The translations under genes and the position numbers were made by a program. From Bacteriovoracia bacterium (lineage in GTDB: Bacteria > Bdellovibrionota > UBA1018 > CAIPTA01): a stretch of DNA of 32,000 bases. Location of the stretch: contig JBFWVL010000001.1 in the NCBI GenBank assembly GCA_050246755.1, positions 340,421 to 372,420 on the forward strand. Direction: 5' to 3'. How positions within the stretch are numbered: the first letter of the stretch is position 1; each line of letters starts with the position of its first letter. Below, in pieces: positions 8,678 to 26,249 of this stretch. The notes beneath the pieces are model-generated. The model had not been told where the DNA came from. It saw nothing but the letters and a program-made list of their open reading frames with translations, and searched no databases.

Positions 8678-9373
8678 ATGATTACCATTCGTAAATCCAA
8701 TGAACGCGGCCACGCCAACCACGGCTGGCTGGACTCCCACCACACCTTTTCCTTCGCGGATTACTACGATCCCCAGCATATGGGCTATAGCGTGCTCCGC
8801 GTGATCAACGAGGATCATATCGCCGCCGGGCAAGGCTTCGGCACCCACGGCCACCGCGATATGGAAATCATCACCTACGTGATCGAAGGCTCGCTCAAGC
8901 ACAAGGACAGCATGGGTAATTCTGAAGTGATCCGCCCCGGAGAAGTGCAGCGCATGAGCGCGGGCACCGGCGTGCAGCATTCCGAGCATAGCGACCCCAG
9001 CGTGAGCACCCACCTGCTCCAAATCTGGATCCTGCCCGAGAAACTCGGCGTGGCACCGAGCTACGAGCAAAAGCAATTCGCCAACGATTTTTCCTGCAGC
9101 GATATGATTCTCGTGGCTTCCCGTTCGGGCCGCGCCAATTCAGTTACGCTAAACCAAGACGTGGACCTATACGTGGCCAAGGCCCAGGCCGAAGGCGAGA
9201 AACATTTGAAAACCTTCCCCCACCGCCACTTGTGGATTCAAGTGGTGAGCGGAGAGGTGCGCGCGGAAGGCGCCACTCTGGGAAAAGGCGACGGCGCGGC
9301 GATCACGGGCGTGGAGATGCTCGTGATCCAGTGGACGAAGGGTTCCGAGTTTCTCGTGTTTGATATGCCGTAA
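8678..9373 (+). CDS. Pirin family protein (bicupin; quercetin 2,3-dioxygenase-like)
   Basis: 231 aa. RGHANHGWLDSHHTFSFADYYDP...GFGTHGHRDMEIITYVIEGSLKHKDSMGN...VQRMSAGTGVQHSE is the canonical pirin N-terminal cupin metal-site pattern (H, H, H, E). Confidence 0.9.
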   Translation: MITIRKSNERGHANHGWLDSHHTFSFADYYDPQHMGYSVLRVINEDHIAAGQGFGTHGHRDMEIITYVIEGSLKHKDSMGNSEVIRPGEVQRMSAGTGVQHSEHSDPSVSTHLLQIWILPEKLGVAPSYEQKQFANDFSCSDMILVASRSGRANSVTLNQDVDLYVAKAQAEGEKHLKTFPHRHLWIQVVSGEVRAEGATLGKGDGAAITGVEMLVIQWTKGSEFLVFDMP

Positions 9374-9374
9374 A

Positions 9375-9390
9375 TTTGCGGCGCCGCAAA
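9375..9390 (+). terminator. Perfect 16-nt palindrome (TTTGCGGCGCCGCAAA) 2 nt after the pirin stop; possible intrinsic terminator
   Basis: Seen directly. It gives a GC-rich stem of 6 bp with a GCGC loop, followed by AACTTGTTCGTTTT (moderately T-rich). It sits between convergent genes. Confidence 0.4.
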
Positions 9391-9412
9391 ACTTGTTCGT
9401 TTTCCGAACGCT

Positions 9413-9430
9413 ACCTCCGACGTCGGAGGT
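9413..9430. terminator. Perfect 18-nt palindrome (ACCTCCGACGTCGGAGGT) between convergent genes; hairpin, non-canonical terminator
   Basis: Seen directly, 6 nt beyond the stop of the minus-strand ATPase gene. On the plus strand it is followed by AAAAA, so on the minus strand it is preceded by TTTTT. Neither strand has a proper trailing U-tract. Confidence 0.3.
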
Positions 9431-9435
9431 AAAAA

Positions 9436-10806
9436 CTACCCGGCTTTTTTCGCGGCCGCGGCTTTCGCGCGCTGCTGGGCCAGTAAATGCTGGTGGTACT
9501 GCGCGAGCGTCATCCCCGCTTTTACCGCCGCCGCCTGCAAAGCTTGCATCTGCGCCGGGGTTAAATGCGCGAGCCCAGGCGGAACGGCGGCCGGTGCCGG
9601 CTTCGCGGCATGCCCCTGATTCTGGGCCGCACTCAAGGCCAACGCATGGCCCGCGGCTTCCGGTGATCCCTTCAGGGGAATTTCTCCACGGAAAGGATTG
9701 TAACGCCCGCCGGGGAGGGCAAATTTTTCGATGGGGAAATTGAATCCGTTCACGGCGATTTCGTCGAAGAAGGTAGGAATATTTCCGCAGGGCTGCATCC
9801 CGCCGAGGATCTTATGGTCTTCGGCGATCCCGGTCTGCTCGAAACGGAAAATATCCTGGGTCGTATATTTTCCATGCTCGTCTACGCCAAGAACTTCGGA
9901 GATATGGGAAAGCTTACGGGAACCATCGTGGTAGCGCTTCGCCTGGATCACGATGTGCACGGCGCCGGCAATCTGCCGGCGAAGGGCGGCCAACGGAATC
10001 GTGGTATCGCCCATCATCGCGAGGGTTTCCAAGCGAACGAGGCAATCCATCGGGCTGTTACTGTGGGTGGTGCCCATCGAGCCGCCGTGGCCGGTATTCA
10101 TTACGGTGATCAAATCGAGAGCCTCGGGCCCGCGCACTTCCCCCACGATGATGCGGTCGGGGCGGAGCCGCATCGCGGAGCGCACGAGATCGCGGATCGT
10201 GAGCGCTCCTTTTCCTTCGTGGTTGGCGGCCTTGGTTTCGAAACATACCACGTGCTCGGCGGTGATCTGCAATTCGGAGGCGTCTTCCACGATCATCAGG
10301 CGCTCGTCTTTGGGCATGAGGCCGCCGAGCAAGTTGAGGATGGTGGTCTTACCAGAGCCGGTACCGCCCGAGACGATGATATTCTTGGCCAGCGAAATGC
10401 AAAGCTTGAGGAAGTCGGCGCCGTCGGCGCTCATGGTGCCGAAGGAAATAAATTTGTCGAAAGTGATCTCGGCGGCTTTGGAGAACTTACGAATGGCCAC
10501 CGTGGTGCCGGCACGGGCGGCGGGCGGCAATACCGCGTGAATACGCGAGCCATCGGGCAAGCGCGCGTCGAGGGTTGGATTTTCTGCGTCGATCTTCCGT
10601 TTCACGAACTGCGCGATATTGCGGACCGCGGCCTGCAGGGAAGTTTCGTCATGGAACTTGGCGCCTTCCATGAGCTCGAGCTTACCTTTACGCTCCACCC
10701 AGATTTCGGATGGGCCATTGATCAGCACCTCGCTCACCGTAGGGTCGGCGAGGAAGTCTTTAATCGGAGCGAGGAAGGTCGCTATACTCTGGTCGAAAAC
10801 ACTCAA
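9436..10806 (-). CDS. CpaF/TadA/VirB11-family secretion (type II/IV) ATPase with a ~94-aa Ala/Gln-rich C-terminal extension
   Basis: 456 aa. Walker A is VSGGTGSGKTTILN, the Asp box IVEDASEL, Walker B RPDRIIVGEVRG and the His box GHGGSMGTTHSNS. TTG start preceded by GAGGTG. The tail from ALPGGRYNPF onward (nt 9436-9720) is low-complexity and lies outside the ATPase core. Confidence 0.9.
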   Translation of the reverse strand: MSVFDQSIATFLAPIKDFLADPTVSEVLINGPSEIWVERKGKLELMEGAKFHDETSLQAAVRNIAQFVKRKIDAENPTLDARLPDGSRIHAVLPPAARAGTTVAIRKFSKAAEITFDKFISFGTMSADGADFLKLCISLAKNIIVSGGTGSGKTTILNLLGGLMPKDERLMIVEDASELQITAEHVVCFETKAANHEGKGALTIRDLVRSAMRLRPDRIIVGEVRGPEALDLITVMNTGHGGSMGTTHSNSPMDCLVRLETLAMMGDTTIPLAALRRQIAGAVHIVIQAKRYHDGSRKLSHISEVLGVDEHGKYTTQDIFRFEQTGIAEDHKILGGMQPCGNIPTFFDEIAVNGFNFPIEKFALPGGRYNPFRGEIPLKGSPEAAGHALALSAAQNQGHAAKPAPAAVPPGLAHLTPAQMQALQAAAVKAGMTLAQYHQHLLAQQRAKAAAAKKAG

Positions 10807-10836
10807 CGGTCACCTCTTTGGTCGCCTGGCGCTACG

Positions 10837-13085: not shown

Positions 13086-13856
13086 CTATTTAGCGAGAAA
13101 CTCCACCTTACCCAATTGATCGAACGTGGCACTCACCGTATCGCCCGCACGAAAAGCCACGGCCGCGGTGGCGCCGCCCGCGAGCACGATGGATCCGGCC
13201 GGCAAAGATTCGCCCATGGCGCCCAGTAGCTTCACGAGCTCCAGCAGCGAAAGCAGGGGATTCCCCAGAATGGCGGCCGAAGACCCCTTTTGCGCGGCCG
13301 CTCCATTTTTTTCGAGCGTGATACCGATATTTTTTAGTTCGAGTTCCCCCGGTTTTTTCCTTACCGTACCGAGCACGAAGGCCGAGGAGGAGCAGTTGTC
13401 GGCCACCACGTCGGGCAGGGCGAAATCAAAATTCTCGAAACGAGAATCAATCACTTCGATCGCCCCGCATACGCTCTCGATCGCCGCAATGGCTTCGGCT
13501 TCGGAAGGATTGCCATGCAGCTCTTTACCCATCACGAAGGCAATCTCGGGTTCGGCCTTAGGATGAATTCTTCTTCCGAGCGTGAGCGTCGCGCCGCTCG
13601 CTATTTGCATGCGGTCGGTGAGGAAGCCGTGGATAGGGCTATCAATTCCCATTTGCTCCATCTTGGGCTTGGAGGTCATTCCCATCTTGCGGCCAACGAT
13701 CCGCGCGCCGCCTTTGAGGTGAAGGGCCATGAGCAAGCGCTGCACTTCGTAGCCCTGACCGAGCGAAAAACTCGGCTCTTCCACCGTAAACTTAATTACG
13801 GACTTTCCCGTTTGCTCCGCCGCGAACAATATTCCCGCGATTTCTTGCGCCTTCAT
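13086..13856 (-). CDS. 2-oxopent-4-enoate hydratase / 4-oxalocrotonate decarboxylase family enzyme (AmnE/AmnF, MhpD/XylI/XylJ type), paralog 2
   Basis: The track ORF starts at TTG 13868. I prefer ATG at 13856 (MKAQEIAG...), which has GGAG 6 nt upstream and sits 1 nt after the upstream stop. Motifs are YEVQ, RIVGRKMGMTSKPKMEQMGIDSPIHGFL and EPEIAF...EVIDSRF. Which paralog is the hydratase and which the decarboxylase cannot be told by eye. Confidence 0.85.
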   Translation of the reverse strand: MKAQEIAGILFAAEQTGKSVIKFTVEEPSFSLGQGYEVQRLLMALHLKGGARIVGRKMGMTSKPKMEQMGIDSPIHGFLTDRMQIASGATLTLGRRIHPKAEPEIAFVMGKELHGNPSEAEAIAAIESVCGAIEVIDSRFENFDFALPDVVADNCSSSAFVLGTVRKKPGELELKNIGITLEKNGAAAQKGSSAAILGNPLLSLLELVKLLGAMGESLPAGSIVLAGGATAAVAFRAGDTVSATFDQLGKVEFLAK

Positions 13857-13857
13857 T

Positions 13858-14637
13858 CTATTCTCCAAAAAAACAGTGCACGTTTCCGAGACCAGCGATT
13901 TCCACGTCTACCCTATCGCCCGCCTTCACCGGCATCACCGGCCCAAAGGCGCCGGAAAGAATCACTTCACCGGCTTTCAGTGCCACCCCGAATTTTCCGA
14001 GCGCATTCGCAAGCCAGGCCACCGCCAGGCAAGGGTGATCGAGGCAAGCCGCGCCGGTGCCGGTGGAAAGAATTTCCCCGTTAATTTTCAGGCTCATCTT
14101 GGCGAGGGTTAAATCCAGGGAGGAAAGCGAATGCTTTTCCGTGCCCAGCACAAAGTGCGAAGAAGAGGCGTTGTCGGCGATCGTGTCCTGGATCTTGATT
14201 TTCCAGTCGCGCACGCGGGAATCAATGATCTCGATCGAGGGAAGAATATAGTCCGTTGCGTGGATCACATCCTGCATCGTTATGCCGGGGCCTATCAAGT
14301 CGCTCTTGAGCACGAAGGCCACCTCGCCCTCCACCCGGGGCAAAAGGAGCTTGGCGCGGGAAAGGCTTCCGCCCGAGGAAATCTTCATGTCGGAAGTGAG
14401 GTAGCCGAAATCGGGCTCTTCCACGCCCAATTGTTTCTGCACTGCCCTAGAAGTAAGGCCGATTTTCTTCCCCACGAGGGTCAGGCCTTCTTGCTCGAGG
14501 CGGCGCTTGAGGTTAATCTCGGACACGGAGTAGGCGTTGCCGATCGTGATTCCGGGAAACTGGGCGGTGAGCGGTTCCACCGGCGAGGCCGAGAGGCGGG
14601 CCTGAAAAAGGGCGTCAGCTAAGGAAGTAAGATTCAT
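13858..14637 (-). CDS. 2-oxopent-4-enoate hydratase / 4-oxalocrotonate decarboxylase family enzyme (AmnE/AmnF, MhpD/XylI/XylJ type), paralog 1
   Basis: 259 aa. Motifs are YSVSE, LVGKKIGLTSRAVQKQLGVEEPDFGYL, EGEVAFVL...IEIIDSRV and ADNASSSHFVLG. Same family as the downstream gene, the usual adjacent-pair arrangement in meta-cleavage operons. Confidence 0.85.
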   Translation of the reverse strand: MNLTSLADALFQARLSASPVEPLTAQFPGITIGNAYSVSEINLKRRLEQEGLTLVGKKIGLTSRAVQKQLGVEEPDFGYLTSDMKISSGGSLSRAKLLLPRVEGEVAFVLKSDLIGPGITMQDVIHATDYILPSIEIIDSRVRDWKIKIQDTIADNASSSHFVLGTEKHSLSSLDLTLAKMSLKINGEILSTGTGAACLDHPCLAVAWLANALGKFGVALKAGEVILSGAFGPVMPVKAGDRVDVEIAGLGNVHCFFGE

Positions 14638-14687
14638 CTTCCCCCACTCTAGTGTCAGGCCAGCGTGATTTCAAGAAGGGATACTCG
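14638..14687. promoter_or_regulatory. ~50-bp divergent intergenic region between the hydratase/decarboxylase pair and kynA
   Basis: This is the only non-coding DNA between divergent start codons (14637 minus, 14688 plus). I recognise no boxes. No regulator gene is visible in the cluster. Confidence 0.3.
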
Positions 14688-15557
14688 ATGTCGAAATACG
14701 ACAACTTGGAGCTGAAAGAACTGAACTATAACTCCTACCTCAAGGTGCCCGAATTGCTCGGCCTCCAAAAAGAGCTTTCCGACCCCGCCCACCACGACGA
14801 AATGTTCTTCATCATCATCCACCAGGCCGCCGAGCTCTGGTTCAAGCAAATGCGCCACGAAACGGCTGGCCTCATCGAGGATTTCCGCGCCAATTCCGTT
14901 TCCCGGGCCTTGAAAAAATTCCGTCGCCTCGTGGGCATTATGGATCTGATGGTGAAGCAGATCAATTTGCTAAACACCCTCACACCCGTGGAGTTCGCGG
15001 GCTTCCGCGATAACCTCCGCCCCGCTTCCGGCTTCCAGTCCATCCAGTTCCGCGTGATCGAGTTCGCCTATGGCATCCGCGAAGCTTTTTTCCTGGAATT
15101 TTTCGCCAAAGAAAAATCCATGCAGAGCCAGCTGCAAGACCTACTCAAAGAACCGAGCGTGCACGATGAGTTCGTGCGCCTGCTAAGCCGCTCCGGCTTC
15201 AAGATTCCGGAGTCCCTACTGAATCGCGACGTGAGCCTGCCGTGGACCGAATCTCCCGAGCTCATCGCCACGATCAAGACGATCTACGAGAATCCCCAGG
15301 AAAATTACCATTGGGTTCTGCTCTTCGAGACCATGCTCGACTTCGACGAAAAATTCGCCGTCTGGCGCTCCGTGCATATGCTCATGGTGGCGCGCACGAT
15401 CGGCATGAAGGCCGGCACCGGCGGCAGCTCGGGCCACGCCTTCCTCGCAGGCCGCGCTGGCCTGAGATTCTTCCCCGAGCTCTGGAGCGTGCGCACGGAA
15501 GTGGGCGGCGGATACGGGAATGCCGGGGCGGCCACTCCCGGGAAATGCCCGGTTTAA
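14688..15557 (+). CDS. kynA: Tryptophan 2,3-dioxygenase
   Basis: MSKYDNLELKELNYNSYLKVPELLGLQKELSDPAHHDEMFFIIIHQAAELWFKQ is the characteristic bacterial TDO N-terminus, with GFQS.QFR and GTGGSSG later. The track ORF begins at GTG 14652; ATG 14688 fits TDO N-termini better. Confidence 0.9.
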   Translation: MSKYDNLELKELNYNSYLKVPELLGLQKELSDPAHHDEMFFIIIHQAAELWFKQMRHETAGLIEDFRANSVSRALKKFRRLVGIMDLMVKQINLLNTLTPVEFAGFRDNLRPASGFQSIQFRVIEFAYGIREAFFLEFFAKEKSMQSQLQDLLKEPSVHDEFVRLLSRSGFKIPESLLNRDVSLPWTESPELIATIKTIYENPQENYHWVLLFETMLDFDEKFAVWRSVHMLMVARTIGMKAGTGGSSGHAFLAGRAGLRFFPELWSVRTEVGGGYGNAGAATPGKCPV

Positions 15558-15561
15558 TAGC

Positions 15562-16746
15562 ATGCGCTTCGACGTTTTCTTCTCCATCTGCCAAACTCCC
15601 GTGAACGGCTATACGCCCTCGGAACGCGTGATGTTCGAGAATTTTTTCTCCCAGGCCGAGCTCGCCGATCAACTCGGCGTGGGCACCGCCTGGGTGGCCG
15701 AAACCCACCTCTCCTGCCAGACCCAAAAAGAAAATCCCGGCGCGGTGGTGCCCCACTTCGAGGGCGAGATCGGCCTCAATACCGACGTGCTCCAGGTGGC
15801 GCACCGCTTATTCGCGCGCACGAAAAAAATCCATATCGGCTCCGCCATCCGCAATATCCAGTGCAATGGCGGCCCTATCGCCCACGCCGAAGCGATCCGC
15901 ATGTTTCTCTCGCTCCACGCGCTCAATCCCGGCGAGAAACGCCTTCTCGATATCGGCTTCGCTTCCGGCCGCTTTCCTTTTTCCAATACGCCCTACGGCA
16001 TCCGCCCCCGCAATGAACTGGAGAAAGCCGCCTGGCCCGTGCTCAAGGGAAAGATCTTCCAGGAAGCCACCGAAATTTTCCTGCGTCTCCTCAAGGGAGA
16101 GAAGCTCGCCTCGAAGGATATTTCACCTAAAATCCTCGAGCGCAAAAATTTCCGCAGTGAGGAGGAATGGGAAAAAATCGCCAAGCTCGCCGGCGGTGCC
16201 GACAAAATCGAAGTCCCCGCTTTCTGGAATTTCGATAAAGTGGGCGTGATTCCCTTCGAAGCCCCCATGGATCTGCTGAAGCTCACCATCGGTTGCCACG
16301 ATCTCGAAACCCAGATCTTCGCCAATAAATTCCTGCCCTGCGGAGTATTCAACCTCTCGATCACCCCCGCTCCCCAGATCGAAGCCACGCACCAGGCGAT
16401 GCAAAAAAGCTTTCACCCCGCGGGTGGCCGTTGGACCCGCGCCCATATGCCCCGCACGGTGCTCGTATTCCTGGATAAAAATCGCGAGAAGGCCCGTGCA
16501 CGTGCCCAGGGCGCGATGGAGAATTACTGGAAAGCCATCGAGGGAACCCTTGATCCCGAGAAGATTCGCAATGCCGTGGACAATGCCCTCGTGGGCGACG
16601 CGGCCGAAATCAAGGCGGAGCTGGAAACGCGCTTCCACCGCGACGATCGCCTCATGCTCTGGTTCGATTTCAATAACCACGACAACGAGGAAGTGCGCTC
16701 TTCCATGCGGGAATTCATGGAAAAAGTGGCGCCGAGCCTACAGTAA
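15562..16746 (+). CDS. Luciferase-like (LLM class) flavin-dependent monooxygenase
   Basis: The track ORF 15520.. is trimmed to ATG 15562 (MRFDVFFSICQ...), 4 nt after the kynA stop. It shows the LLM TIM-barrel N-terminal pattern (MRFDVFF...AELADQLGVGTAWVAETHLS) and is ~394 aa. Family-level call only. Confidence 0.75.
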   Translation: MRFDVFFSICQTPVNGYTPSERVMFENFFSQAELADQLGVGTAWVAETHLSCQTQKENPGAVVPHFEGEIGLNTDVLQVAHRLFARTKKIHIGSAIRNIQCNGGPIAHAEAIRMFLSLHALNPGEKRLLDIGFASGRFPFSNTPYGIRPRNELEKAAWPVLKGKIFQEATEIFLRLLKGEKLASKDISPKILERKNFRSEEEWEKIAKLAGGADKIEVPAFWNFDKVGVIPFEAPMDLLKLTIGCHDLETQIFANKFLPCGVFNLSITPAPQIEATHQAMQKSFHPAGGRWTRAHMPRTVLVFLDKNREKARARAQGAMENYWKAIEGTLDPEKIRNAVDNALVGDAAEIKAELETRFHRDDRLMLWFDFNNHDNEEVRSSMREFMEKVAPSLQ

Positions 16747-17036
16747 TTTTTATTTATATCAAACAAGCATAACTCCTCTCACTCACCCTCAAAAAAATCG
16801 CTTTCATTGCCTGACATTTCCTGAAATTTAAATGGGAACTTTTTCTCATGCGGCGCGGCAGTGTTGATTTTATAGAGAAATTTTCCACGCACTTCGAAGG
16901 AGATCCCGCTCTAAATTCATTTTATGAATAGTAACTTTCATCCAGCGCGTCACATCTAAATGGAATCCTAACCGAATTTTTCTTCACAAAAAGATCGCGC
17001 TCGCAGAGGATTACTTCATTCCAGGGGGGAATATTC
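16747..17036. promoter_or_regulatory. 290-bp AT-rich non-coding spacer upstream of the nuclease gene, containing a 6-3-6 palindrome ATTCAT-TTT-ATGAAT (16915-16929)
   Basis: Its composition is visibly more AT-rich than the flanks (runs such as ATTTTTATTTATATCAAAC and GAAATTTAAATG). The palindrome was read directly. GGGGGGA lies 7 nt before the nuclease ATG. Confidence 0.35.
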
Positions 17037-17735
17037 ATGACGAAAAATTGGATCTACTCGCTAAGTCTAGTTCTAGCTCTCACCGCAAACCTTGCTCTAG
17101 CCGGCGGCGCTGCCGTATCGGACCGCCTCAAATGCAATAAGGCGACCGAACTTCCCGTCAACGCAAGCGTAGACCGCGTGGTAGACGGCGACACCGTGAT
17201 CATCCGCGTCCCCACCGGCACCTACTCGGTGCGCATGATGGGCATCGATACCCCCGAAACTCACTTCATGGGCAAGAGCCAGGGCGAATGGGGCGATAAA
17301 GCCGCCGAACTCCTCTCCGACCTACTCCCCGTAGGCACCAAGGTTCGCCTCGAGTACACCGCGGAATCCTGCGATGCGCACGGGCGCCTGCTCGCCCACG
17401 TATTCAAAGGCAAGCTGCACACGAATGCCGAAATGGTGAAGCAAGGCCTCGCCGCCAACTATTGCGTAGCCCCCAGCTTCGAGTATTGCCGCGAAATCGG
17501 AAACCACGTGGCCAACGCCATTAAATACCGCCTGGGTATGTTCGCCGACTCCAACGCCGAGCTTCCCTATGATTTCCGCCGCCGCATTGGTGGCAACGAG
17601 CAGCGCTCTTTCGTGGGCAATCTCTCCACGAAAGAAGTTCTTACTCCCGGCCACCAAGATGACGTTCCGGTTGCCGAACGCGTATTCTTCTATCGCCAGA
17701 GCGACGTGAAGGCCCCCTACTTCATCGCGAAATAA
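17037..17735 (+). CDS. Secreted thermonuclease (staphylococcal nuclease, SNase) family protein
   Basis: 232 aa. Signal peptide MTKNWIYSLSLVLALTANLALAGG. SNase motifs are RVVDGDTVIIR, VRMMGIDTPET and HGRLLAHVF...N.EMVKQGLA. Confidence 0.85.
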   Translation: MTKNWIYSLSLVLALTANLALAGGAAVSDRLKCNKATELPVNASVDRVVDGDTVIIRVPTGTYSVRMMGIDTPETHFMGKSQGEWGDKAAELLSDLLPVGTKVRLEYTAESCDAHGRLLAHVFKGKLHTNAEMVKQGLAANYCVAPSFEYCREIGNHVANAIKYRLGMFADSNAELPYDFRRRIGGNEQRSFVGNLSTKEVLTPGHQDDVPVAERVFFYRQSDVKAPYFIAK

Positions 17736-17752: not shown

Positions 17753-17788
17753 GCCTCTGCCTTCACGGGCAGGGGCTTTTTCATTTTA
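17753..17788 (+). terminator. Rho-independent terminator after the nuclease gene
   Basis: GCCTCTGCC-TTCACG-GGCAGGGGC gives a 9-bp stem with one G-U pair and a 6-nt loop. It is followed by TTTTTCATTTTAT, 18 nt after the stop codon. Confidence 0.75.
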
Positions 17789-17827: not shown

Positions 17828-18859
17828 ATGAGCGACCACGCTTACTCGCAAAACCAATGGGTGCCTCTCGTGGACTACCGTCGCAATGGAGTGGCTGAAT
17901 GCACCATCCACGGCTCCATTGCCTGGGTTTCGGGAACCAAGCTCGTGCACGCCTTTGGCGGGGAAGTGCTCTGCTATGGCCGCTCGATGATGAAGCCCTA
18001 TATGGTGAAGGTTTTCGCCAAAGAGCTCGAGGATATGAGCTGGGAACAGAAAGCCATCTCGGTGGCCTCCCATAACGGCGACACCGAACATATCCGCGTA
18101 GTCAGCTCCGTACTTTCCGAAAGCGAGCTCGGCCTCGTGCAAACCCCGCTCGCGCTGCCGCTGATGCAATTCGGCCAGCAGCGCCGCCGCCCGCGCCGCC
18201 TCTATCATTCCTGCTCCGGCGAACACGCCGCCATCCTCCGTGGCTGCCGCGTGAAGGGCTGGAGCCGCGTTGGCTATGTGTGGCCTCACCACGAATTTTT
18301 CCTCGCCTACCTCGCCCAGGTTCGCACCGTGCTCGGCGCCGATTGGGAACCCAAAGTGATCGCCAAAGACGGTTGCGGATTACCCACGATTTCCATGACT
18401 ACCGTGGAGATGGCGCGACTTATGGCCGATCTCGTAACGAAGAGAAACGACGATTGGGTTTGGGACGCGATGGTGAAGCACCCGGATCTCGTGGGCGGCT
18501 TCAACCGCCTCGATTCCACGATCATGAAATCCTGCGAAGGCCGCGTGATTGCCAAAGAAGGCGCCGACGGCTTGCTCGGGCTCGCAATCGAGCACCCGGA
18601 CTATCCTGATGGCCTCGGGGTAGTGATCAAGATCGCCCACGGCTGGGACATGCGCGCCACCTGGTACGTAGCCCGCTACGTGCTCGGCGTTTTGGGTTTT
18701 GATTTCCGCAATCCCTACCCGCTCGAGCGGCAAAAAGCTTTTCTGGTAGAGGATTGCATCCCGCCGGCGCTAAGGCCCAAGATGGATTCGATTCAGCCCT
18801 GGGACGACTGGGATCCGGATAGAGACCGCTGGAATTTTGATTACCGGGAGTTCACTTGA
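17828..18859 (+). CDS. Asparaginase II family (Rhizobium-type L-asparaginase-like) amidohydrolase
   Basis: 343 aa. Family-like motifs are GRSMMKPYM (Ser-x-x-Lys), SHNGDTEH, HSCSGEHAA, KDGCGLPT and AKEGADGL. Its stop overlaps the TTG start of the downstream aldehyde dehydrogenase (TTGA). Confidence 0.7.
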   Translation: MSDHAYSQNQWVPLVDYRRNGVAECTIHGSIAWVSGTKLVHAFGGEVLCYGRSMMKPYMVKVFAKELEDMSWEQKAISVASHNGDTEHIRVVSSVLSESELGLVQTPLALPLMQFGQQRRRPRRLYHSCSGEHAAILRGCRVKGWSRVGYVWPHHEFFLAYLAQVRTVLGADWEPKVIAKDGCGLPTISMTTVEMARLMADLVTKRNDDWVWDAMVKHPDLVGGFNRLDSTIMKSCEGRVIAKEGADGLLGLAIEHPDYPDGLGVVIKIAHGWDMRATWYVARYVLGVLGFDFRNPYPLERQKAFLVEDCIPPALRPKMDSIQPWDDWDPDRDRWNFDYREFT

Positions 18860-20298
18860 AATTAGCTAACTATATCGACGGCCACGAGCAGGCCCCGCTT
18901 TCGGGAAAGTATTTGCCCAACTACGCGCCCGCTACCGGCGAGATCTATTCCGAGATCCCCGATTCCAGCGCGGCAGACGTAGACCTCGCCGTGAAGGCCG
19001 CACAGAAAATTTTCCCTTGGTGGAGCCAACGCACCCCCGAGCAAAGATCCCAGGTTTTACTCTCGATTGCCGATCGAATGGAAAAATCCGTCGACGATCT
19101 CGTGAACGCCGAGAGCCGCGACCAGGGAAAACCCGTGCACCTCGCGCGCGAAATCGAAATCCCCCGCGCCATCCAAAATTTCCGCTACTTCGCCACCAAG
19201 ATTTTGCACACCGAAGAAACCGCGAGGCCCTCGCAGGCCCTGAGCTCCCTCTCCTACACCTACCGCATGCCCGTGGGCGTGGCCGGATTGATCTCGCCAT
19301 GGAATCTCCCGCTCTATTTGCTCACCTGGAAAATCGCGCCGGCCATCGCCGCCGGGAACACGGTGGTTTGCAAGCCCTCCGAGCTCACGCCGATGACGGC
19401 CTACCTCATGGGCGAAATCTTCAACGAGGCGGGCGTTCCCCACGGAGTGGTGAACATGGTATTCGGCCTCGGCGTCACCGCGGGCGCCGCACTCGCCGCT
19501 CACCCCGATGTGCCACTCATTTCTTTTACCGGCGGTACCGCCACCGGCCGCAAGATCCTCGAGGCCTCGATTCCGCGTTTCAAGAAAACCAGCCTCGAGC
19601 TCGGCGGAAAAAATGCGGCGCTGGTTTTTGCCGACTGCGATCTCGCCGAAGCTGTGATCACGAGCGTGCGCTCATCCTTCCAGAACCAAGGCGAAATCTG
19701 CCTCTGCAATTCCCGCATCCTGGTGGAAGAAGGCATCTACGAGAAATTCGTGGAAAAATTCGCGCGCACGGCGAGCCTCATCCGCGTGGGCGATCCCACC
19801 CTGAAAGAAACCCAGATGGGCCCGCTCGTGAGCAAGGAGCATAAAGAAAAAGTTCTCTCCTATATCAAGCTCGCCACCGAAGAAGGCGGCACTATTCTAG
19901 GCGGCGGCACCGTCCCCCACCTCGAAGCGCCCTTCGATCAAGGCTATTTCGTAAATCCCACGATCATCACGGGCCTCGGCCCCAACTGCCGTGTGAACCA
20001 GGAAGAGATTTTTGGCCCCGTGGCCAGTATCATTCCCTTCAAAACTGAGGAGGAAGCGATTGCGATCGCGAACGGCGTGGAATACGGACTATCCGCCTCC
20101 GTTTGGACCCGCGATATTTCTCGCGCCCACCGCGTAGCCCAGGCCCTGCACGTGGGCACCACCTGGGTAAACTCCTGGATGGTCCGCGATCTCGGCATGC
20201 CTTTCGGCGGCATGAAGCATTCCGGCCTCGGCCGCGAAGGCGGAGATCACTCGCTGAATTTTTTCAGCGAAACGAAAACCATCAGCGTGAAGATATGA
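18856..20298 (+). CDS. amnC: 2-aminomuconate-6-semialdehyde / 2-hydroxymuconate semialdehyde dehydrogenase (ALDH superfamily, AmnC/NbaE/XylG type)
   Basis: 480 aa. The N-terminus MKLANYIDG...AVKAAQKIFPWW and REIEIPRAIQNFRYFA are typical of the HMSD/AMSDH clade. It has the ALDH Glu motif ELGGKNA and the Cys motif QNQGEICLCNSR. The gene symbol is assigned from context. Confidence 0.85.
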   Translation: MKLANYIDGHEQAPLSGKYLPNYAPATGEIYSEIPDSSAADVDLAVKAAQKIFPWWSQRTPEQRSQVLLSIADRMEKSVDDLVNAESRDQGKPVHLAREIEIPRAIQNFRYFATKILHTEETARPSQALSSLSYTYRMPVGVAGLISPWNLPLYLLTWKIAPAIAAGNTVVCKPSELTPMTAYLMGEIFNEAGVPHGVVNMVFGLGVTAGAALAAHPDVPLISFTGGTATGRKILEASIPRFKKTSLELGGKNAALVFADCDLAEAVITSVRSSFQNQGEICLCNSRILVEEGIYEKFVEKFARTASLIRVGDPTLKETQMGPLVSKEHKEKVLSYIKLATEEGGTILGGGTVPHLEAPFDQGYFVNPTIITGLGPNCRVNQEEIFGPVASIIPFKTEEEAIAIANGVEYGLSASVWTRDISRAHRVAQALHVGTTWVNSWMVRDLGMPFGGMKHSGLGREGGDHSLNFFSETKTISVKI

Positions 20299-20813
20299 AG
20301 CTCTTCCTGCTTTTCTTAATTCCTCTTTTTGCCTTCGCCAAGCCCGCGGCACGCAAATCCAAGGCGCCGCCCAAACGCGTAGCCACGAAGATCACTTCGG
20401 GCAAACAGGTTTGCGATATGGTGAAAAAATTCACCACCGCCGGGTTTCCCGCCCAGACCAATATCGATTTCGCCGTGGGGAAAAAGTTCGTGGCCGAAGG
20501 AAAGCTCGGCGCCATCGACAAAAATATCGGCACCTTCCATTTAGCCAATCTCTACCTGCGCGCCATCGCCAAGGGCGAGGAGGGCCTCACCTATAAAGAG
20601 GGCTGCCTAAAAATCAATTTCCCCGACCTCGATAAGGATGGGATTAAGGACCTCGAGCTCTCCGTGACGATGGAGCGACTCGACCCCAAAGCGAATCCTA
20701 AAGTGGTGAGCACCGTGAACTACGAACGCACGTTCATCTACCATCCGGAACAGAAAATCTACGAGCCCATGACCGGCTCCCCTCACCCCTTCGTGGAGCT
20801 CGTGATCAAGTGA
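20295..20813 (+). CDS. Exported protein, unknown function
   Basis: The track ORF 20103.. is trimmed to ATG 20295 (ATGA overlap with the amnC stop). Signal peptide MKLFLLFLIPLFAFAKP; 172 aa. I recognise no family. Confidence 0.5.
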   Translation: MKLFLLFLIPLFAFAKPAARKSKAPPKRVATKITSGKQVCDMVKKFTTAGFPAQTNIDFAVGKKFVAEGKLGAIDKNIGTFHLANLYLRAIAKGEEGLTYKEGCLKINFPDLDKDGIKDLELSVTMERLDPKANPKVVSTVNYERTFIYHPEQKIYEPMTGSPHPFVELVIK

Positions 20814-21190
20814 AACAGGTGATCCTGATCCGCCGCGATCTCAATATGCGCCGGGGAAAAGAAATCGCGCAGGGGTCACACGCCTCGATGGGATTTCTGA
20901 TCGAGCAATTGCGGGCGCAGATGCCTTCTTCGGAGGCTTCGGTCACTCTCGACGCGGCCACGCAGGAATGGATTCAGTTCGGCATGGGAAAGATTTGCCT
21001 GCAGGTTACGAGCGAAGCGGATTTGCTTAGCTTCCACGCGAAGGCGAAGGCCGCCGGAGTGTATAGTTTTTTGGTGAGGGATAGTGGCCGCACGGAATTT
21101 CACGGCGAACCTACCTATACCGCCTGCGCGATCGGGCCCGATACGGCCGAGAGAATCGATGCAATCACGGGTGAGCTGAACTTGTATTGA
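20810..21190 (+). CDS. pth2: Peptidyl-tRNA hydrolase, PTH2 (archaeal/eukaryotic-type) family
   Basis: 126 aa. VILIRRDLNMRRGKEIAQGSHAS...RDSGRTEFHGEPTYTACAIGP...IDAITGELNLY follows the Pth2 pattern (R.DL.MG.GK.AAQ..HA ... D.GRT....T.T...IGP ... TG.LKLY). GTG start in a GTGA overlap. Confidence 0.85.
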   Translation: MKQVILIRRDLNMRRGKEIAQGSHASMGFLIEQLRAQMPSSEASVTLDAATQEWIQFGMGKICLQVTSEADLLSFHAKAKAAGVYSFLVRDSGRTEFHGEPTYTACAIGPDTAERIDAITGELNLY

Positions 21191-21284: not shown

Positions 21285-23493
<2,209 letters not shown>

Positions 23494-23497
<4 letters not shown>

Positions 23498-24129
23498 AGA
23501 TTTGGGACATCAGCCCGGTGATTTCCGAGAAGACGGCCGTATTTCCCGGCGACGTGCCTTTTTCCCGCGAAGTTTCGATGGACACGAAAAAAGGCCACCA
23601 CCTCACCCTCTCGGCCATTCGTTCCACGCTGCATATCGGCGCGCACGCCGACGCCGGCAATCATTATCATAAAGAGGGAAAAGGCGTGGAGGCGCGGCCC
23701 CTCGAATCCTACCTGGGCGACTGTGAAGTGATCGCCGTAAAGCTTCCCCGTGGTGCCCGTATCGGAATCGAGCATTTGAACGGAAGAATCCCGCTCGCCC
23801 CCCGCGTGCTCTTCAAAACAAATTCTTTTCCCGATCCCGATCAATGGAACAATGATTTCAATTCTCTCTCGCCCGAGCTGATCGAGTTCCTCGCCGACCG
23901 CGGCGCTATGCTCGTGGGTATCGACACTCCGAGCGTAGATCCCGTGGATTCCAAAGCCCTCGAAAGCCACCAGGCGCTGCACCGCAGAAATCTCGCCGTG
24001 CTCGAGGGAATCACGCTGGAACAGGTAACGGAAGGCGTGTACACCCTGGTCGCTTTGCCGCTGCGAATGAAAGACGCTGACGCTTCGCCGGTTCGTGCTA
24101 TCCTTATAAACAAAGAAACGTTGTTGTGA
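23494..24129 (+). CDS. kynB: Kynurenine formamidase (arylformamidase, cyclase family)
   Basis: 211 aa. MKIWDISPVISEKTAVFPGDVPF and the metal motif LHIGAHADAGNHY are typical of bacterial KynB, as is the C-terminal GIDTPSVDP. ATGA overlap with the upstream stop. Confidence 0.9.
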
Positions 24130-24156: not shown

Positions 24157-24546
24157 ATGCGCGCGCTATTGCTTCTTTCTCTTTTTTTTCTCACCGCCTG
24201 TGCCGGATCAAAATCAAGTAACGACGCCCAAGAGCCCAGCACCGACGAGTGCCTCTCCAATTCCGCCGCCGGCGACGCCTGGGGCGAGTGCAACGTGAAG
24301 AAAACCATTTACCAAAATATGGATAAGCTCGTGGCCTGCCAAGAAAAAAATCCCACCAAGGGCGGTACCATGATGCTGAAGATCAGCCTAAAGACGAACG
24401 GCGTGGTAAAAAAAGTGAGACCGGAAGCCGGCACGGTTCGTAATCGCCCGCTCGAGGCCTGCCTTTCAAAAGCATTCGCGCGCGTGAAATTCGCGGCTCC
24501 TCCCGAGGGAGTGAAGCCAGTTATCTATTTTCCCTTGTCGCTTTAG
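24157..24546 (+). CDS. Lipoprotein, unknown function (C-terminal TonB-C/AgmX-like small domain possible)
   Basis: 129 aa. Lipobox in MRALLLLSLFFLTAC|AGS. Paired Cys and a ~70-aa C-terminal domain ending VKFAAPPEGVKPVIYFPLSL. The domain call is weak. Confidence 0.5.
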   Translation: MRALLLLSLFFLTACAGSKSSNDAQEPSTDECLSNSAAGDAWGECNVKKTIYQNMDKLVACQEKNPTKGGTMMLKISLKTNGVVKKVRPEAGTVRNRPLEACLSKAFARVKFAAPPEGVKPVIYFPLSL

Positions 24547-26129: not shown

Positions 26130-26157
26130 ATGACACGTAAATAATTGAATTTATTAA
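26130..26157 (+). promoter_or_regulatory. Candidate sigma70-type promoter for pccB (-35 ATGACA, 16-nt spacer, -10 TATTAA) inside an AT-rich patch
   Basis: Read directly from the 189-bp divergent intergenic region. The hexamers match consensus at 5/6 and 4/6. This is purely a sequence-pattern call. Confidence 0.25.
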
Positions 26158-26249
26158 CTTTATTTTACCTTATCGGACCTGCCCCACCTAGCCCGCCCTC
26201 GACGCGGTGCTCGCTTCCTTCCTACACTATTTCGCCTATCGTTATCGGC

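Follow-up and report, generated by a model that had tools for sequence, protein, structure and literature searches.

The classical kynurenine pathway starts with tryptophan 2,3-dioxygenase (TDO) and arylformamidase, continues with KMO (a class A FAD enzyme), kynureninase (PLP-dependent), 3-hydroxyanthranilate dioxygenase (HAO, a cupin) and ACMSD, and reaches 2-aminomuconate semialdehyde and its dehydrogenase (AMSDH), the side chain being released as alanine and CO2. In the amn/cnb/nbz clusters of nitroarene degraders, 2-aminophenol is obtained from nitrobenzene via hydroxylaminobenzene mutase and is processed by AmnB, AmnA, AmnC, AmnD, AmnE, and AmnF. A third relevant system is the 4-hydroxyacetophenone pathway of Pseudomonas fluorescens ACB, in which the Baeyer-Villiger monooxygenase (BVMO) HapE and the esterase HapD convert an aryl ketone to an aryl ester and then to a phenol, hydroquinone, whose ring is subsequently cleaved. 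When the aryl group of an aryl alkyl ketone is electron-rich, Baeyer-Villiger oxidation yields the aryl ester; for kynurenine, the acyl part of such an ester is β-aspartyl. Among luciferase-like monooxygenases (LLMs), the 2,5- and 3,6-diketocamphane monooxygenases are type II BVMOs that share the luciferase-like TIM barrel, take FMNH2 from a separate reductase, attack the carbonyl of a bicyclic ketone with a nucleophilic peroxyflavin, and form a lactone. Bacterial luciferase has been grouped with the type II BVMOs (PMC6352141), and for two further LLMs, RslO1 and MsnO8, polyketide epoxidation has been proposed (PMC8093152).

The locus described here lies in a stretch of 32,000 nucleotides from a Bacteriovoracia bacterium, referred to as the window, in which an LLM gene sits among genes for TDO, arylformamidase, and the cleavage of 2-aminophenol. 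The relevant features are the following.

13086..13868, minus strand: 2-oxo-3-hexenedioate (4-oxalocrotonate) decarboxylase-like protein, AmnE/DmpH-like (TIGR03218, E 1.4e-72, under cut-off; Pfam FAA_hydrolase)
13858..14637, minus strand: 2-oxopent-4-enoate hydratase-like protein, AmnF/DmpE-like (TIGR03220, E 1.1e-96, under cut-off; Pfam FAA_hydrolase)
14652..15557, plus strand: TDO, kynA (Pfam Trp_dioxygenase, E 1.7e-52)
15562..16746, plus strand: divergent LLM flavin monooxygenase, a proposed kynurenine/N-formylkynurenine Baeyer-Villiger oxygenase (open reading frame, PF00296, AlphaFold2, Foldseek, neighborhood)
17828..18859, plus strand: Asparaginase_II-like (AsnaseII-like) Ser-Lys hydrolase with a class 3 asparaginase fold (PF06089, E 4.8e-49)
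18856..20298, plus strand: 2-aminomuconate-6-semialdehyde dehydrogenase, AmnC-like, AMSDH (top seven PDB matches all this enzyme, E ∼1e-136)
21318..22226, plus strand: 2-aminophenol 1,6-dioxygenase β (catalytic) subunit, AmnB (PDB, E 1e-123)
22223..23497, plus strand: AmnA (2-aminophenol 1,6-dioxygenase α) fused to a RidA-type, AmnD-like deaminase (PDB matches)
23494..24129, plus strand: arylformamidase (kynurenine formamidase), KynB-like (Pfam Cyclase, E 1e-15)

AmnB is 60 to 61% identical to 3vsg_B and 8ihg_A, ungapped over 292 residues, and its stop codon is overlapped by the ATG of the AmnA-RidA gene at 22223. The AmnA part of the fusion matches the α subunit 7txy_A (E 1.3e-57), and the C-terminal 130 residues match the 2-aminomuconate deaminase 6izh (E 6.8e-23). 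The formamidase, decarboxylase, and hydratase assignments are those of the best NCBIfam match, all of which fall under the curated equivalog cut-offs (for the arylformamidase, 206.8 bits against TIGR03035 with a cut-off of 223); the best NCBIfam match of AMSDH is likewise under cut-off and names a 2-hydroxymuconic semialdehyde dehydrogenase. The window thus carries counterparts of AmnB, AmnA, AmnC, AmnD, and the AmnE/AmnF pair, but in contrast to the amn/cnb/nbz clusters it has TDO, formamidase, the LLM, and the asparaginase-like hydrolase, AmnA is fused to RidA, and a Pfam scan of 27 window ORFs detected no 4-hydroxy-2-oxovalerate aldolase or acetaldehyde dehydrogenase family, enzymes for which the genes may lie elsewhere. 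The same scan detected no kynureninase, KMO, HAO, or ACMSD, whereas the TDO and arylformamidase start and the convergence at 2-aminomuconate semialdehyde and AMSDH are common to the window and the classical pathway.

The LLM gene encodes 394 amino acids, from the ATG at 15562 to the stop codon at 16744-16746. The TDO gene ends with TAA at 15555-15557, followed by tagc and the LLM ATG, so that the 4-nt spacing given by the initial annotation agrees with the ORF coordinates. One gene caller placed the start at the in-frame ATG at 15520 (P0001, 408 aa); homologs of ∼395 aa argue for 15562, and their N termini, which read M-(R/K)-F-D-V-F-F, are in line with that start. For TDO, the ORF opens at a GTG at 14652, and the true start is more likely the ATG at 14688, since the TDO of a related locus (L001) begins at the equivalent Met. 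The LLM ORF is a real gene, as 3245 database proteins match it at E ≤ 1e-3 and the best 120 are all at least 64% identical. The initial annotation considered cotranscription with kynA nearly certain. Since no terminator-like site was found at the junction of the two genes, cotranscription is plausible; a weak terminator-like site is located 3' of the LLM gene at 16851-16866. Direct adjacency of kynA and LLM is limited to the clade of the window and is not the conserved feature.

The LLM protein is a divergent member of its class. It scores 32.4 bits against Pfam Bac_luciferase (PF00296, gathering cut-off 27.9), and this match covers only the N-terminal half (LLM residues 1-181, profile positions 1-142 of 314). 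A PDB search with the single sequence was empty at E ≤ 10, a profile built from 46 homologs gave marginal LLM matches only (chain 8k74_A at E 0.007), and no NCBIfam model, including those for SsuD and F420 enzymes, matched at E ≤ 1e-5. The fold was settled by structure prediction. The AlphaFold2 model (pLDDT 89.7, pTM 0.89) matched 98 PDB chains at E ≤ 1e-3 in Foldseek, of which the best 50 all have the LLM fold, with a top match at E 1e-15 and TM 0.69/0.81. The model confirms a predicted luciferase-like TIM barrel, a (β/α)8 fold superimposable on LuxA-type structures. In the 46-homolog profile alignment, His49 falls on the second His of EHHF, a motif of LuxA-type proteins, and G-S-A-I of β3 aligns with G-T-A-I, which hints only indirectly at binding of reduced FMN (or F420) at the C-terminal face of the barrel; conserved residues include His49, Asp75, Arg293, and Asp362-Arg363. 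The LLM-class label of the initial annotation is therefore correct, though it is barely visible by sequence. Bac_luciferase is the sole Pfam match, and neither a KMO-type FAD_binding_3 domain nor the Rossmann class A fold is present in the protein. At least 59% identity is retained across members from Bdellovibrionota, Acidobacteriota, Planctomycetota, and Sericytochromatia, and outside this tight family there are only ∼10 full-length relatives, with 34 to 49% identity. By sequence the family forms an island of its own (296 representatives of 1.84 billion); in species-level reference genomes it was found in at least 346 stretches, from several phyla. Current database names for its members are "alkanesulfonate monooxygenase-like" or "LLM class oxidoreductase."

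The best Foldseek matches of the LLM model are FMN-dependent LLMs (E 1e-15 to 1e-12, TM 0.6-0.8), and the nearest solved structures are RslO1, the myxobacterial and Vibrio luciferases, and MsnO8 (E 1e-15 to 1e-11, TM up to 0.81 on the target), all of them FMN-dependent two-component oxygenases, although the LLM is only 12 to 18% identical to these proteins and its gene context is entirely different. The F420-dependent LLMs (Adf, Mer, FGD) follow at ranks 24-48 and SsuD/MsuD at ranks 35-49 of the best 50, and the nearest structures are thus neither F420 nor alkanesulfonate-type enzymes. A JGI label, "SsuD/methylene-H4MPT reductase-like," was rejected as a statement of function given the low Foldseek rank of SsuD and the lack of an NCBIfam match, and no ssu/tau sulfonate-utilization genes were found in the window or in related neighborhoods. 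The likeness to diketocamphane monooxygenases put forward in the initial annotation holds at the level of the fold; 3,6-DKCMO (4uwm, 5aec) appears at Foldseek ranks 32-38 with 14 to 15% identity and gives no sequence match. The chemistry that we propose for the LLM would resemble theirs in its use of FMNH2 from a separate reductase and of a nucleophilic peroxyflavin directed at a carbonyl, whereas the substrate would be an acyclic aryl-ketone amino acid and the product an aryl ester.

A two-component enzyme of this kind would depend on a flavin reductase. As the initial annotation noted, none is visible in the window, either in the Pfam scan of the 27 ORFs or by tblastn with the Fre-like and SDR proteins of related loci. 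This absence is uninformative, because type II BVMOs such as the diketocamphane monooxygenases use distally encoded flavin reductases such as Fre (PMC6352141). A Fre/LuxG-type NAD(P)H-flavin reductase gene (FNR fold) is located upstream of the LLM gene in 18 related loci, a neighbor that favors FMN over F420. In ∼55 of 82 loci the gene next to the LLM gene on its upstream side encodes an atypical SDR, which was considered as a reductase partner or as essential to oxygenation and was rejected, as it is missing from the window clade and from some Thermoanaerobaculia loci. Since these keep LLM-AsnaseII-AmnBA without it, the SDR cannot be essential, and it has no role in the proposed scheme.

The main evidence for function is the conserved gene context rather than adjacency to kynA. 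We inspected 82 LLM loci in 32-kb or ±10-kb windows, 33 of which, from Bdellovibrionota, Acidobacteriota, and Planctomycetota, had full flanks. Among these 33, AMSDH accompanies the LLM in 97%, a RidA deaminase domain in 85%, and AsnaseII and AmnB in 76% each. The latter two co-vary perfectly (25 loci with both, 8 with neither, 0 with one), and in split operons AsnaseII leaves together with AmnBA and does not stay with the LLM. Substitutes for the hydrolase or the dioxygenase were sought in three loci that have neither (L027, L034, and L049) and rejected; because downstream there are only unrelated genes, for a peptidase, a tRNA-editing domain, and the synthesis of lipid A, or ORFs with no Pfam match, the operon appears to be simply split. 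L034 belongs to Sulfidibacter corallicola M133 (NZ_CP071793), the single cultured carrier of the LLM that was found. Across all 82 loci, AsnaseII is present in 57, and its gene lies within 250 bp of the LLM gene in 32 of 58 cases, overlapping or abutting it in many lineages. The initial annotation would have given up its reading if the closest relatives were F420 reductases or alkanesulfonate-type enzymes and other genomes showed no kynurenine linkage; that is not the case, and TDO and/or arylformamidase lie within 10 kb of the LLM gene in 16 of the 33 loci with full flanks, which represent at least three phyla. The recurrent neighbor clusters include no kynureninase, KMO, HAO, or ACMSD, and since these enzymes are absent here and in the window, oxygenation and side-chain removal to 2-aminophenol would be the missing step.

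More distant relatives of the LLM, at 34 to 46% identity, keep the module in other, unrelated contexts in which the kynurenine linkage recurs. In L085, TDO, AsnaseII, and LLM genes overlap by 4 nt in a BGC-like operon, and in L087 the LLM gene is followed by a gene for an AsnaseII::arylformamidase fusion protein and then by TDO. AmnBA was not found at either locus within flanks of up to 8 kb, the L085 contig ending ∼3.9 kb downstream. AsnaseII is found beside LLM relatives at 34 to 43% identity, including as LLM-AsnaseII pairs. Two other relatives (L088 and L095) form LLM-PrnB-family pairs with a GNAT and an α/β-hydrolase, and two remote relatives are orphans.

The AsnaseII-like hydrolase belongs to the same Pfam family as ReAIV and ReAV of Rhizobium etli, which are class 3 L-asparaginases, but is only distantly similar to them (E 1e-15), and no NCBIfam model matches it. 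In ReAV, Arg47 binds the α-carboxylate of the substrate and Cys135, Lys138, and Cys189 form a zinc site (PMC12292245). The equivalents of Arg47 and of the Ser48-Lys51 and Ser80-Lys263 tandems (pattern II, Arg-Ser-x-x-Lys) are kept; R52, S53, K56, and K243 are invariant in all 49 LLM-linked AsnaseII proteins and S81 is present in 48. By sequence, the zinc site (pattern I) has degenerated and its pattern is not present. The window protein has Cys129, Glu132, and Cys183 at these positions, with Glu in place of Lys; across the LLM-linked proteins the Lys position is K in 19, E in 14, and H in 14, and both Cys positions are Ser or Asp in 16 of 49. Retention of the Ser-Lys tandems and the Arg with loss of the zinc site fits a β-aspartyl substrate with a different leaving group, and the genomic setting, catabolic or biosynthetic with an LLM, differs from asparagine utilization. 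We propose that the protein is a β-aspartyl-(2-aminophenyl) ester/anilide hydrolase.

Our current hypothesis, to which we assign a probability of roughly 0.6, is that the LLM is an FMNH2-dependent Baeyer-Villiger oxygenase of kynurenine or N-formylkynurenine. As the oxygenase of a two-component system, it would take as substrate the aryl ketone that results from TDO action, either L-kynurenine or perhaps N-formylkynurenine. The side-chain ketone would be attacked by a nucleophilic flavin peroxide and the electron-rich 2-amino(formamido)phenyl group would migrate in a Baeyer-Villiger/Dakin-type reaction, giving the β-(2-aminophenyl) ester of L-aspartate, which as the free amine could rearrange to N4-(2-hydroxyphenyl)asparagine. 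The AsnaseII-like hydrolase would split this β-aspartyl derivative into L-aspartate and 2-aminophenol, with arylformamidase removing formate before or after that step. AmnBA would then open 2-aminophenol by meta-cleavage to 2-aminomuconate semialdehyde, where the route would meet the classical pathway, and the dehydrogenase, RidA deaminase, 4-oxalocrotonate decarboxylase, and hydratase would carry the product toward central metabolism. KMO, kynureninase, HAO, and ACMSD would thereby be replaced, and the side chain would leave as aspartate. The coupling to AsnaseII supports this reading, because the Baeyer-Villiger product of kynurenine requires a β-aspartyl hydrolase, and so does the coupling to the 2-aminophenol dioxygenase pair AmnBA; the initial annotation had drawn on neither. 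The logic would be that of the HapE/HapD pathway, although HapE, a class B FAD/NADPH enzyme, has a single component, its partner esterase has another fold, and the phenol is hydroquinone rather than 2-aminophenol. Comparative genomics thus supports the suggestion of the initial annotation that the LLM oxygenates these substrates, either as a type II BVMO or as some other novel enzyme. Several observations speak against Baeyer-Villiger chemistry: the LLM has negligible sequence relatedness to proven type II BVMOs, its top structural neighbors RslO1 and MsnO8 are proposed epoxidases and not BVMOs, kynurenine, as an o-amino aryl ketone, offers a deactivated electrophile, about half of the full-flank loci have neither TDO nor formamidase within 10 kb, the SDR finds no place in the scheme, and two remote relatives of the LLM are orphans.

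The joint loss of AsnaseII and AmnBA from split operons can also be explained by a different ordering of steps. The LLM could be a non-canonical kynurenine 3-hydroxylase, that is, a KMO analogue, in which case AmnBA would cleave 3-hydroxykynurenine to a 3-acyl ACMS analogue and the AsnaseII-like protein would act as a C-C (retro-Claisen) hydrolase to release aspartate and 2-aminomuconate semialdehyde. The perfect covariation of AsnaseII with AmnB is in keeping with this order, the released acyl group would again be β-aspartyl, ACMSD would not be required, and the electrophilic-type oxygen transfer (epoxidation) proposed for RslO1 and MsnO8 would suit a hydroxylase. We nevertheless regard it as improbable. 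L085 and L087 retain TDO, LLM, and AsnaseII (and formamidase) but show no AmnBA within the flanks inspected, which reach up to 8 kb, so that ring cleavage does not appear to be needed before the hydrolase acts. In addition, the enzymes to which AmnB aligns without gaps at 60 to 61% identity use small 2-aminophenols, and serine-β-lactamase-fold enzymes are, to our knowledge, not known as C-C hydrolases.

A further possibility is that the LLM forms 2-aminophenol from a different compound, such as anthranilate that a kynureninase has released and that the LLM would decarboxylate oxidatively, with AsnaseII being a true asparaginase or an unrelated syntenic amidase. A kynureninase could be encoded outside the 32-kb or ±10-kb windows that were inspected, and the absence of TDO and formamidase from about half of the full-flank loci would be accommodated. 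Fusion of AsnaseII to arylformamidase in L087, however, places the hydrolase in the tryptophan-to-kynurenine segment, its close association with the LLM gene (32 of 58 within 250 bp) extends down to 34% identity, and the zinc site that has degenerated is the one tied to asparagine recognition. We know of no precedent for LLM-catalyzed decarboxylative hydroxylation and rate this possibility as slighter still than 3-hydroxylation. Least probable in our estimation is that the LLM is not an O2-activating FMN enzyme of a tryptophan metabolite at all but an F420- or NAD(P)H-linked oxidoreductase, an alkanesulfonate-type enzyme, or an enzyme of the lower pathway. Although F420-dependent LLMs and SsuD/MsuD are among the significant Foldseek matches (ranks 24-49), FMN-dependent oxygenases rank first, Fre/LuxG-like reductase genes adjoin the LLM gene in 18 loci, sulfonate-utilization genes and NCBIfam SsuD or F420 matches are lacking, and identified enzymes already fill every role in the lower pathway.

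The openly searchable full-text literature yielded no account of a kynurenine Baeyer-Villiger oxygenase or of a route from kynurenine to 2-aminophenol and aspartate. If the Baeyer-Villiger reading is confirmed, it would add a third bacterial fate of kynurenine to the routes via kynureninase to anthranilate and via KMO to 3-hydroxykynurenine. It would also bring into tryptophan metabolism both the cleavage of an amino-acid side chain by flavin-peroxide Baeyer-Villiger chemistry and a hydrolase with the class 3 asparaginase fold, links that were not found in the searched literature, and would give a new function to an LLM family of at least 346 genome stretches in several phyla. A TDO/LLM/hydrolase/formamidase cassette would be a genetic module for making 2-aminophenol, a precursor of phenoxazinones and benzoxazoles, from tryptophan.

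The finding may also bear on predatory bacteria: kynA is the gene most specific to predators, yet the other steps of the kynurenine pathway are missing from obligate predators (Pasternak et al. 2015, PMC4646340). Among the best 120 matches to the LLM of a Bdellovibrio MAG, there were no named cultured predators. Somewhat short of even odds, in our judgment, is the broader proposal that the LLM holds the central step of a widespread but so far undescribed tryptophan route replacing KMO, kynureninase, HAO, and ACMSD, that its TDO-LLM-hydrolase cassette is reused in BGCs as a generator of 2-aminophenol, and that the "unknown pathway" to which the orphan, predator-specific kynA belongs is this route (PMC4646340). 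The proposed route may account for the orphan kynA in predators, and its confirmation would make this published puzzle directly testable.

The luciferase-like monooxygenase (LLM) is encoded in a gene cluster which, within the window, consists of the following members.

Genes of the LLM cluster in the window (coordinates, strand where listed, identity)
13086-13868, minus: 2-oxo-3-hexenedioate decarboxylase as best match (NCBIfam)
13858-14637, minus: 2-oxopent-4-enoate hydratase as best match (NCBIfam)
14652-15557, plus: tryptophan 2,3-dioxygenase (TDO, kynA; Pfam Trp_dioxygenase, E 1.7e-52), start listed as GTG 14652
15562-16746, plus: LLM, ATG 15562, 394 codons
17828-18859: Asparaginase_II (class 3 asparaginase) family protein (Pfam family match), here the AsnaseII-like hydrolase
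18856-20298: 2-aminomuconate-6-semialdehyde dehydrogenase (best seven PDB matches all that enzyme, E ~1e-136)
21318-22226: AmnB, beta (catalytic) subunit of 2-aminophenol 1,6-dioxygenase (E 1e-123; 60-61% ungapped identity to 3vsg_B and 8ihg_A)
22223-23497: AmnA, alpha subunit (E 1.3e-57), fused to a RidA domain; ATGA overlap at its start
23494-24129: arylformamidase (NCBIfam)

Based on these gene identities, the cluster encodes the entry to kynurenine (TDO and formamidase) and a complete route from 2-aminophenol to 2-oxopent-4-enoate. AmnA is the non-catalytic alpha subunit, and the top RidA-domain PDB match of its fused domain is 2-aminomuconate deaminase. This fusion recurs in many relatives; a standalone 139-aa RidA protein is found instead in 19 loci. 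Neither kynureninase, KMO, 3-hydroxyanthranilate dioxygenase, nor ACMSD was found among the 27 window ORFs scanned. The same scan returned no flavin reductase, in agreement with the initial annotation, which had seen no such partner in the window. Only the LLM and the AsnaseII-like hydrolase remain to join these two ends.

Several other features accompany the cluster. A staphylococcal-nuclease-like gene with a signal-peptide-like N-terminus (17037-17735) is inserted between the LLM and AsnaseII genes in the window's clade only (5 loci), and is followed by a strong terminator-like hairpin (17753-17776; 10-bp stem, T-run). Two small unannotated ORFs, one lipoprotein-like (MKLFLLFLIPLFAFA...) and the other 126 aa, lie between the dehydrogenase and AmnB (~20296-20813 and 20810-21190), a position held by a DUF4920 protein in the related locus L001. 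Downstream of the cluster is a same-strand acyl-CoA carboxylase set (26145-29807; carboxyltransferase, biotin carboxylase, and biotin-carrier protein), separated from the formamidase by a 505-aa ORF with no Pfam match (24543-26060, minus).

The LLM ORF does begin 4 nt past the TDO stop codon, as had been described (TAA 15555-15557, then tagc, then ATG 15562), and zero terminator-like sites lie between the two genes. An alternative in-frame LLM start, ATG 15520, was rejected, as homologs are ~395 aa long with a conserved N-terminus, M-(R/K)-F-D-V-F-F. For TDO, alignment suggests that ATG 14688 (MSKYDNLELKELNYNSY...), which matches the start of the L001 orthologue, is more likely the true start than GTG 14652. 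The LLM matches 3245 database proteins, the best 120 of which are at least 64% identical, and the ORF is therefore a real, widely conserved gene. The sequence signal for its class is barely detectable: the Pfam Bac_luciferase profile reaches 32.4 bits (cut-off 27.9) and aligns to just the N-terminal half, no NCBIfam model matches, and no PDB chain is found at E <= 10. An AlphaFold2 model (46 homologs as input; pLDDT 89.7, pTM 0.89) was therefore compared by Foldseek, and the predicted fold upholds the LLM-class label. The model resembles luciferase-like TIM barrels, with RslO1 at the top (E 1e-15), followed by myxobacterial luciferase, LuxA/LuxB, 8k74, 2i7g, a PKS OX domain, and MsnO8. The first F420 enzyme stands at rank 24, 3,6-diketocamphane monooxygenase at 32, and the first SsuD/MsuD entry at 35, with identity of 12-18% throughout.

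An exhaustive HMMER search over 1.84 billion 50%-identity representatives (E <= 1e-3) recovered only 296 proteins, mostly fragments with ~10 full-length relatives at 34-49% identity, and reached no ordinary LLM. The family thus stands apart as a small and isolated group of the superfamily. Within this group, proteins from 82 loci share 59-80% identity with the window protein and derive from Bdellovibrionota, Acidobacteriota (Holophagae, Thermoanaerobaculia, and the cultured Sulfidibacter corallicola M133), Planctomycetota, and Sericytochromatia; in species-level reference genomes, 346 stretches encode a relative. A signature is kept down to 34% identity (D4, F6, S8, W44, H49, D75, G93, G103-G104-P105, G132, G136, E154, W158, W291, R293, and D362-R363). 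One 1501-aa representative, P0126, aligns to the LLM through its N-terminal ~207 residues (46% identity, two matched stretches) and may represent either a fusion or an error of assembly or gene calling.

Linkage was counted by tblastn of window proteins against the 82 loci, many of which are truncated contigs. The dehydrogenase was the most frequent partner (65 loci), ahead of the AsnaseII-like hydrolase (57) and the AmnB/AmnA pair (47); TDO (17), formamidase (13), and the decarboxylase/hydratase pair (8) were detected less often. In the 33 loci whose flanks reach 8 kb or more on each side, the frequencies were 97% for the 2-aminomuconate semialdehyde dehydrogenase, 85% for the RidA domain, 76% each for AsnaseII and AmnB, and 16/33 for TDO or formamidase. 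AsnaseII and AmnB co-vary perfectly in this subset (both in 25, neither in 8, a single one in 0), and the AsnaseII gene starts within 250 bp of the LLM stop in 32/58 cases. Loci without AsnaseII/AmnBA (L027, L034, L049, L052, and L074) have the order TDO-(SDR)-LLM-dehydrogenase-RidA, with formamidase in L027 and L049. Unrelated genes come next in the three that were scanned (L027, L034, and L049), and we therefore regard these as split operons and not as an alternative solution.

Unbiased ORF clustering of the loci gave no further recurrent metabolic partner beyond an atypical SDR and a Fre/LuxG-type reductase, both absent from the window. The SDR (~260 aa) is encoded on the same strand directly upstream of the LLM in ~55/82 loci (e.g., L034:9228-10004, L009:5737-6537, and L049:9249-10004). 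It keeps the glycine-rich NAD(P) motif; in 55/55 the catalytic Tyr is missing, Lys is replaced by Arg, and Asn by His, a motif shared by its nearest PDB relatives, uncharacterised Burkholderia SDRs. This SDR is missing from each of the 9 loci that carry the 4-oxalocrotonate decarboxylase/hydratase pair; it might reduce flavin, or act as an ene-reductase that opens a different lower branch leading to 2-oxoadipate. In six Thermoanaerobaculia loci, among them L066 (7752-9158), a gene just upstream of the LLM encodes an outer-membrane channel of the FadL/TodX family, which would be consistent with import of a hydrophobic or aromatic substrate.

AmnBA acts on a small 2-aminophenol, and TDO together with formamidase yields kynurenine, an o-aminoaryl ketone. 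We propose that the LLM would catalyze a Baeyer-Villiger (BV, Dakin-type) oxygen insertion into kynurenine with migration of the electron-rich aryl group, converting Ar-CO-CH2-CH(NH3+)-COO- to Ar-O-CO-CH2-CH(NH3+)-COO-. The product would be the beta-(2-aminophenyl) ester of aspartate, which, through its free o-amine, might shift to N4-(2-hydroxyphenyl)asparagine. Both forms would be beta-aspartyl derivatives for the AsnaseII-like hydrolase, and asparaginases hydrolyse this bond type. Across 49 LLM-linked members of the hydrolase, Arg52-Ser53-x-x-Lys56, Ser81, and Lys243 show little or no variation, and correspond to Arg47, Ser48-Lys51, Ser80, and Lys263 of the asparaginase ReAV. In ReAV, Arg47 binds the alpha-carboxylate, Ser48-Lys51 is the nucleophile tandem, and a zinc site (Cys135/Lys138/Cys189) is thought to aid asparagine recognition (PMC12292245). 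In the LLM-linked proteins the zinc site is degenerate: the Lys position is Glu132 in the window protein and K, E, or H across members, and in a third of the 49 Ser or Asp stands in place of Cys. As judged by residue conservation, the hydrolase fits the beta-aspartyl picture.

Within the LLM fold, luciferase and the diketocamphane type II BV monooxygenases (BVMOs) are established examples of nucleophilic peroxyflavin attack on carbonyls. In these systems FMNH2 diffuses from distal reductases, Fre included (PMC6352141), and so the missing reductase gene in the window is no argument against the BV proposal. The Fre/LuxG-like protein, an FNR-fold NAD(P)H-flavin reductase of 258-264 aa with no Fe-S domain, is encoded divergently upstream of SDR-LLM in 18 Bdellovibrionales loci (e.g., L011:489-1265 and L002:7599-8393, both minus). 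It is a candidate for the partner missing from the window, and these neighbours mildly favour the BV proposal.

The strongest argument comes from the gene neighbourhoods of the full-length relatives (34-49% identity), which are independent in both phylogeny and context. P0143 (34-35%; L085:14-13067) lies in a biosynthetic-looking TDO-AsnaseII-LLM operon with 4-nt overlaps and no AmnBA, whose other genes encode AMP-binding, PALP, DUF1611, MR_MLE, ACAD-like, GNAT, and MFS proteins and a second LLM. P0134 (39%; L087) is followed by a 530-aa fusion (9221-10813) of an AsnaseII-like part (residues 5-284; 33% identical to the window protein, SxxK kept) and an arylformamidase part (residues 314-522; 46%), with TDO adjoining and no AmnBA within 8 kb. 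For P0132 (40%) and P0129 (43%), the AsnaseII gene is directly next. P0130 (42%) and P0124 (46%) precede a gene of the PrnB family, which belongs to the IDO/TDO-like heme superfamily, with GNAT and alpha/beta-hydrolase genes nearby and, in one case, TDO and TrpAB. These LLM-PrnB pairs sit in biosynthetic-looking clusters (L088:353-7511 and L095:1-12391), and L095 also carries two BMC shell proteins, PEP-utilising enzyme domains, TrpAB, and TDO. P0121 (49%) has an aldehyde dehydrogenase next on a short contig, and P0123 and P0127 are orphans. A heme tryptophan-dioxygenase-type enzyme, this LLM, and a hydrolase therefore form a module older and more widely spread than the catabolic cluster. The initial reading of the LLM as a candidate kynurenine or N-formylkynurenine oxygenase gains support from comparative genomics well past kynA adjacency. 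In a variant of the proposal, N-formylkynurenine would replace kynurenine as substrate; formylation would leave the ketone less deactivated and block the O-to-N shift, and the variant is consistent both with TDO-LLM adjacency and with the AsnaseII::formamidase fusion.

The perfect AsnaseII/AmnB co-variation would also be accounted for if the LLM were a KMO analogue, AmnBA opened 3-hydroxykynurenine, and the hydrolase cleaved a C-C bond to give aspartate and 2-aminomuconate semialdehyde. However, AmnBA is missing from the modules of L085 and L087, and AmnB is closely similar to small-substrate enzymes, which makes this explanation unlikely. We give still less credence to an LLM that converts anthranilate to 2-aminophenol, with kynureninase encoded elsewhere and AsnaseII incidental, as the LLM-AsnaseII coupling is deep and AsnaseII is fused to formamidase. 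Marginally less probable again is that the LLM is no FMN oxygenase of a tryptophan metabolite at all but an F420, SsuD-like, or lower-pathway enzyme, given the structural-neighbour ranking, the Fre neighbours, and the gene context. From the genomic comparisons, we place the BV mechanism at a probability of roughly 0.6, and hold it somewhat more probable that the LLM and hydrolase jointly turn TDO-derived kynurenine into 2-aminophenol.

The LLM probably works like a diketocamphane BVMO; it has the same superfamily fold but no detectable sequence relationship, and for this reason is not classed in that family. The proposed pathway follows the same logic as the 4-hydroxyacetophenone route, in which a BVMO is followed by an esterase and then ring cleavage. 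Its lower half matches the amn/cnb clusters, and it shares the first two steps and the convergence point with the kynurenine pathway. Full-text literature searching, with subscription journals outside its coverage, found no description of the enzyme, intermediate, or route. The fold and reaction type are known, while novelty appears to lie in the substrate, in the hydrolase partner, and in the tryptophan route that results.

The window and most LLM carriers are Bdellovibrionota MAGs, and the best 120 matches to a Bdellovibrio-MAG LLM protein were all MAGs, with no cultured obligate predator among them. Of all bacterial genes, kynA is the most specific to predators, and obligate predators have no other gene of the kynurenine pathway, "suggesting ... 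another, unknown pathway" (PMC4646340). The LLM route may be an answer to the missing kynurenine pathway of these predators.
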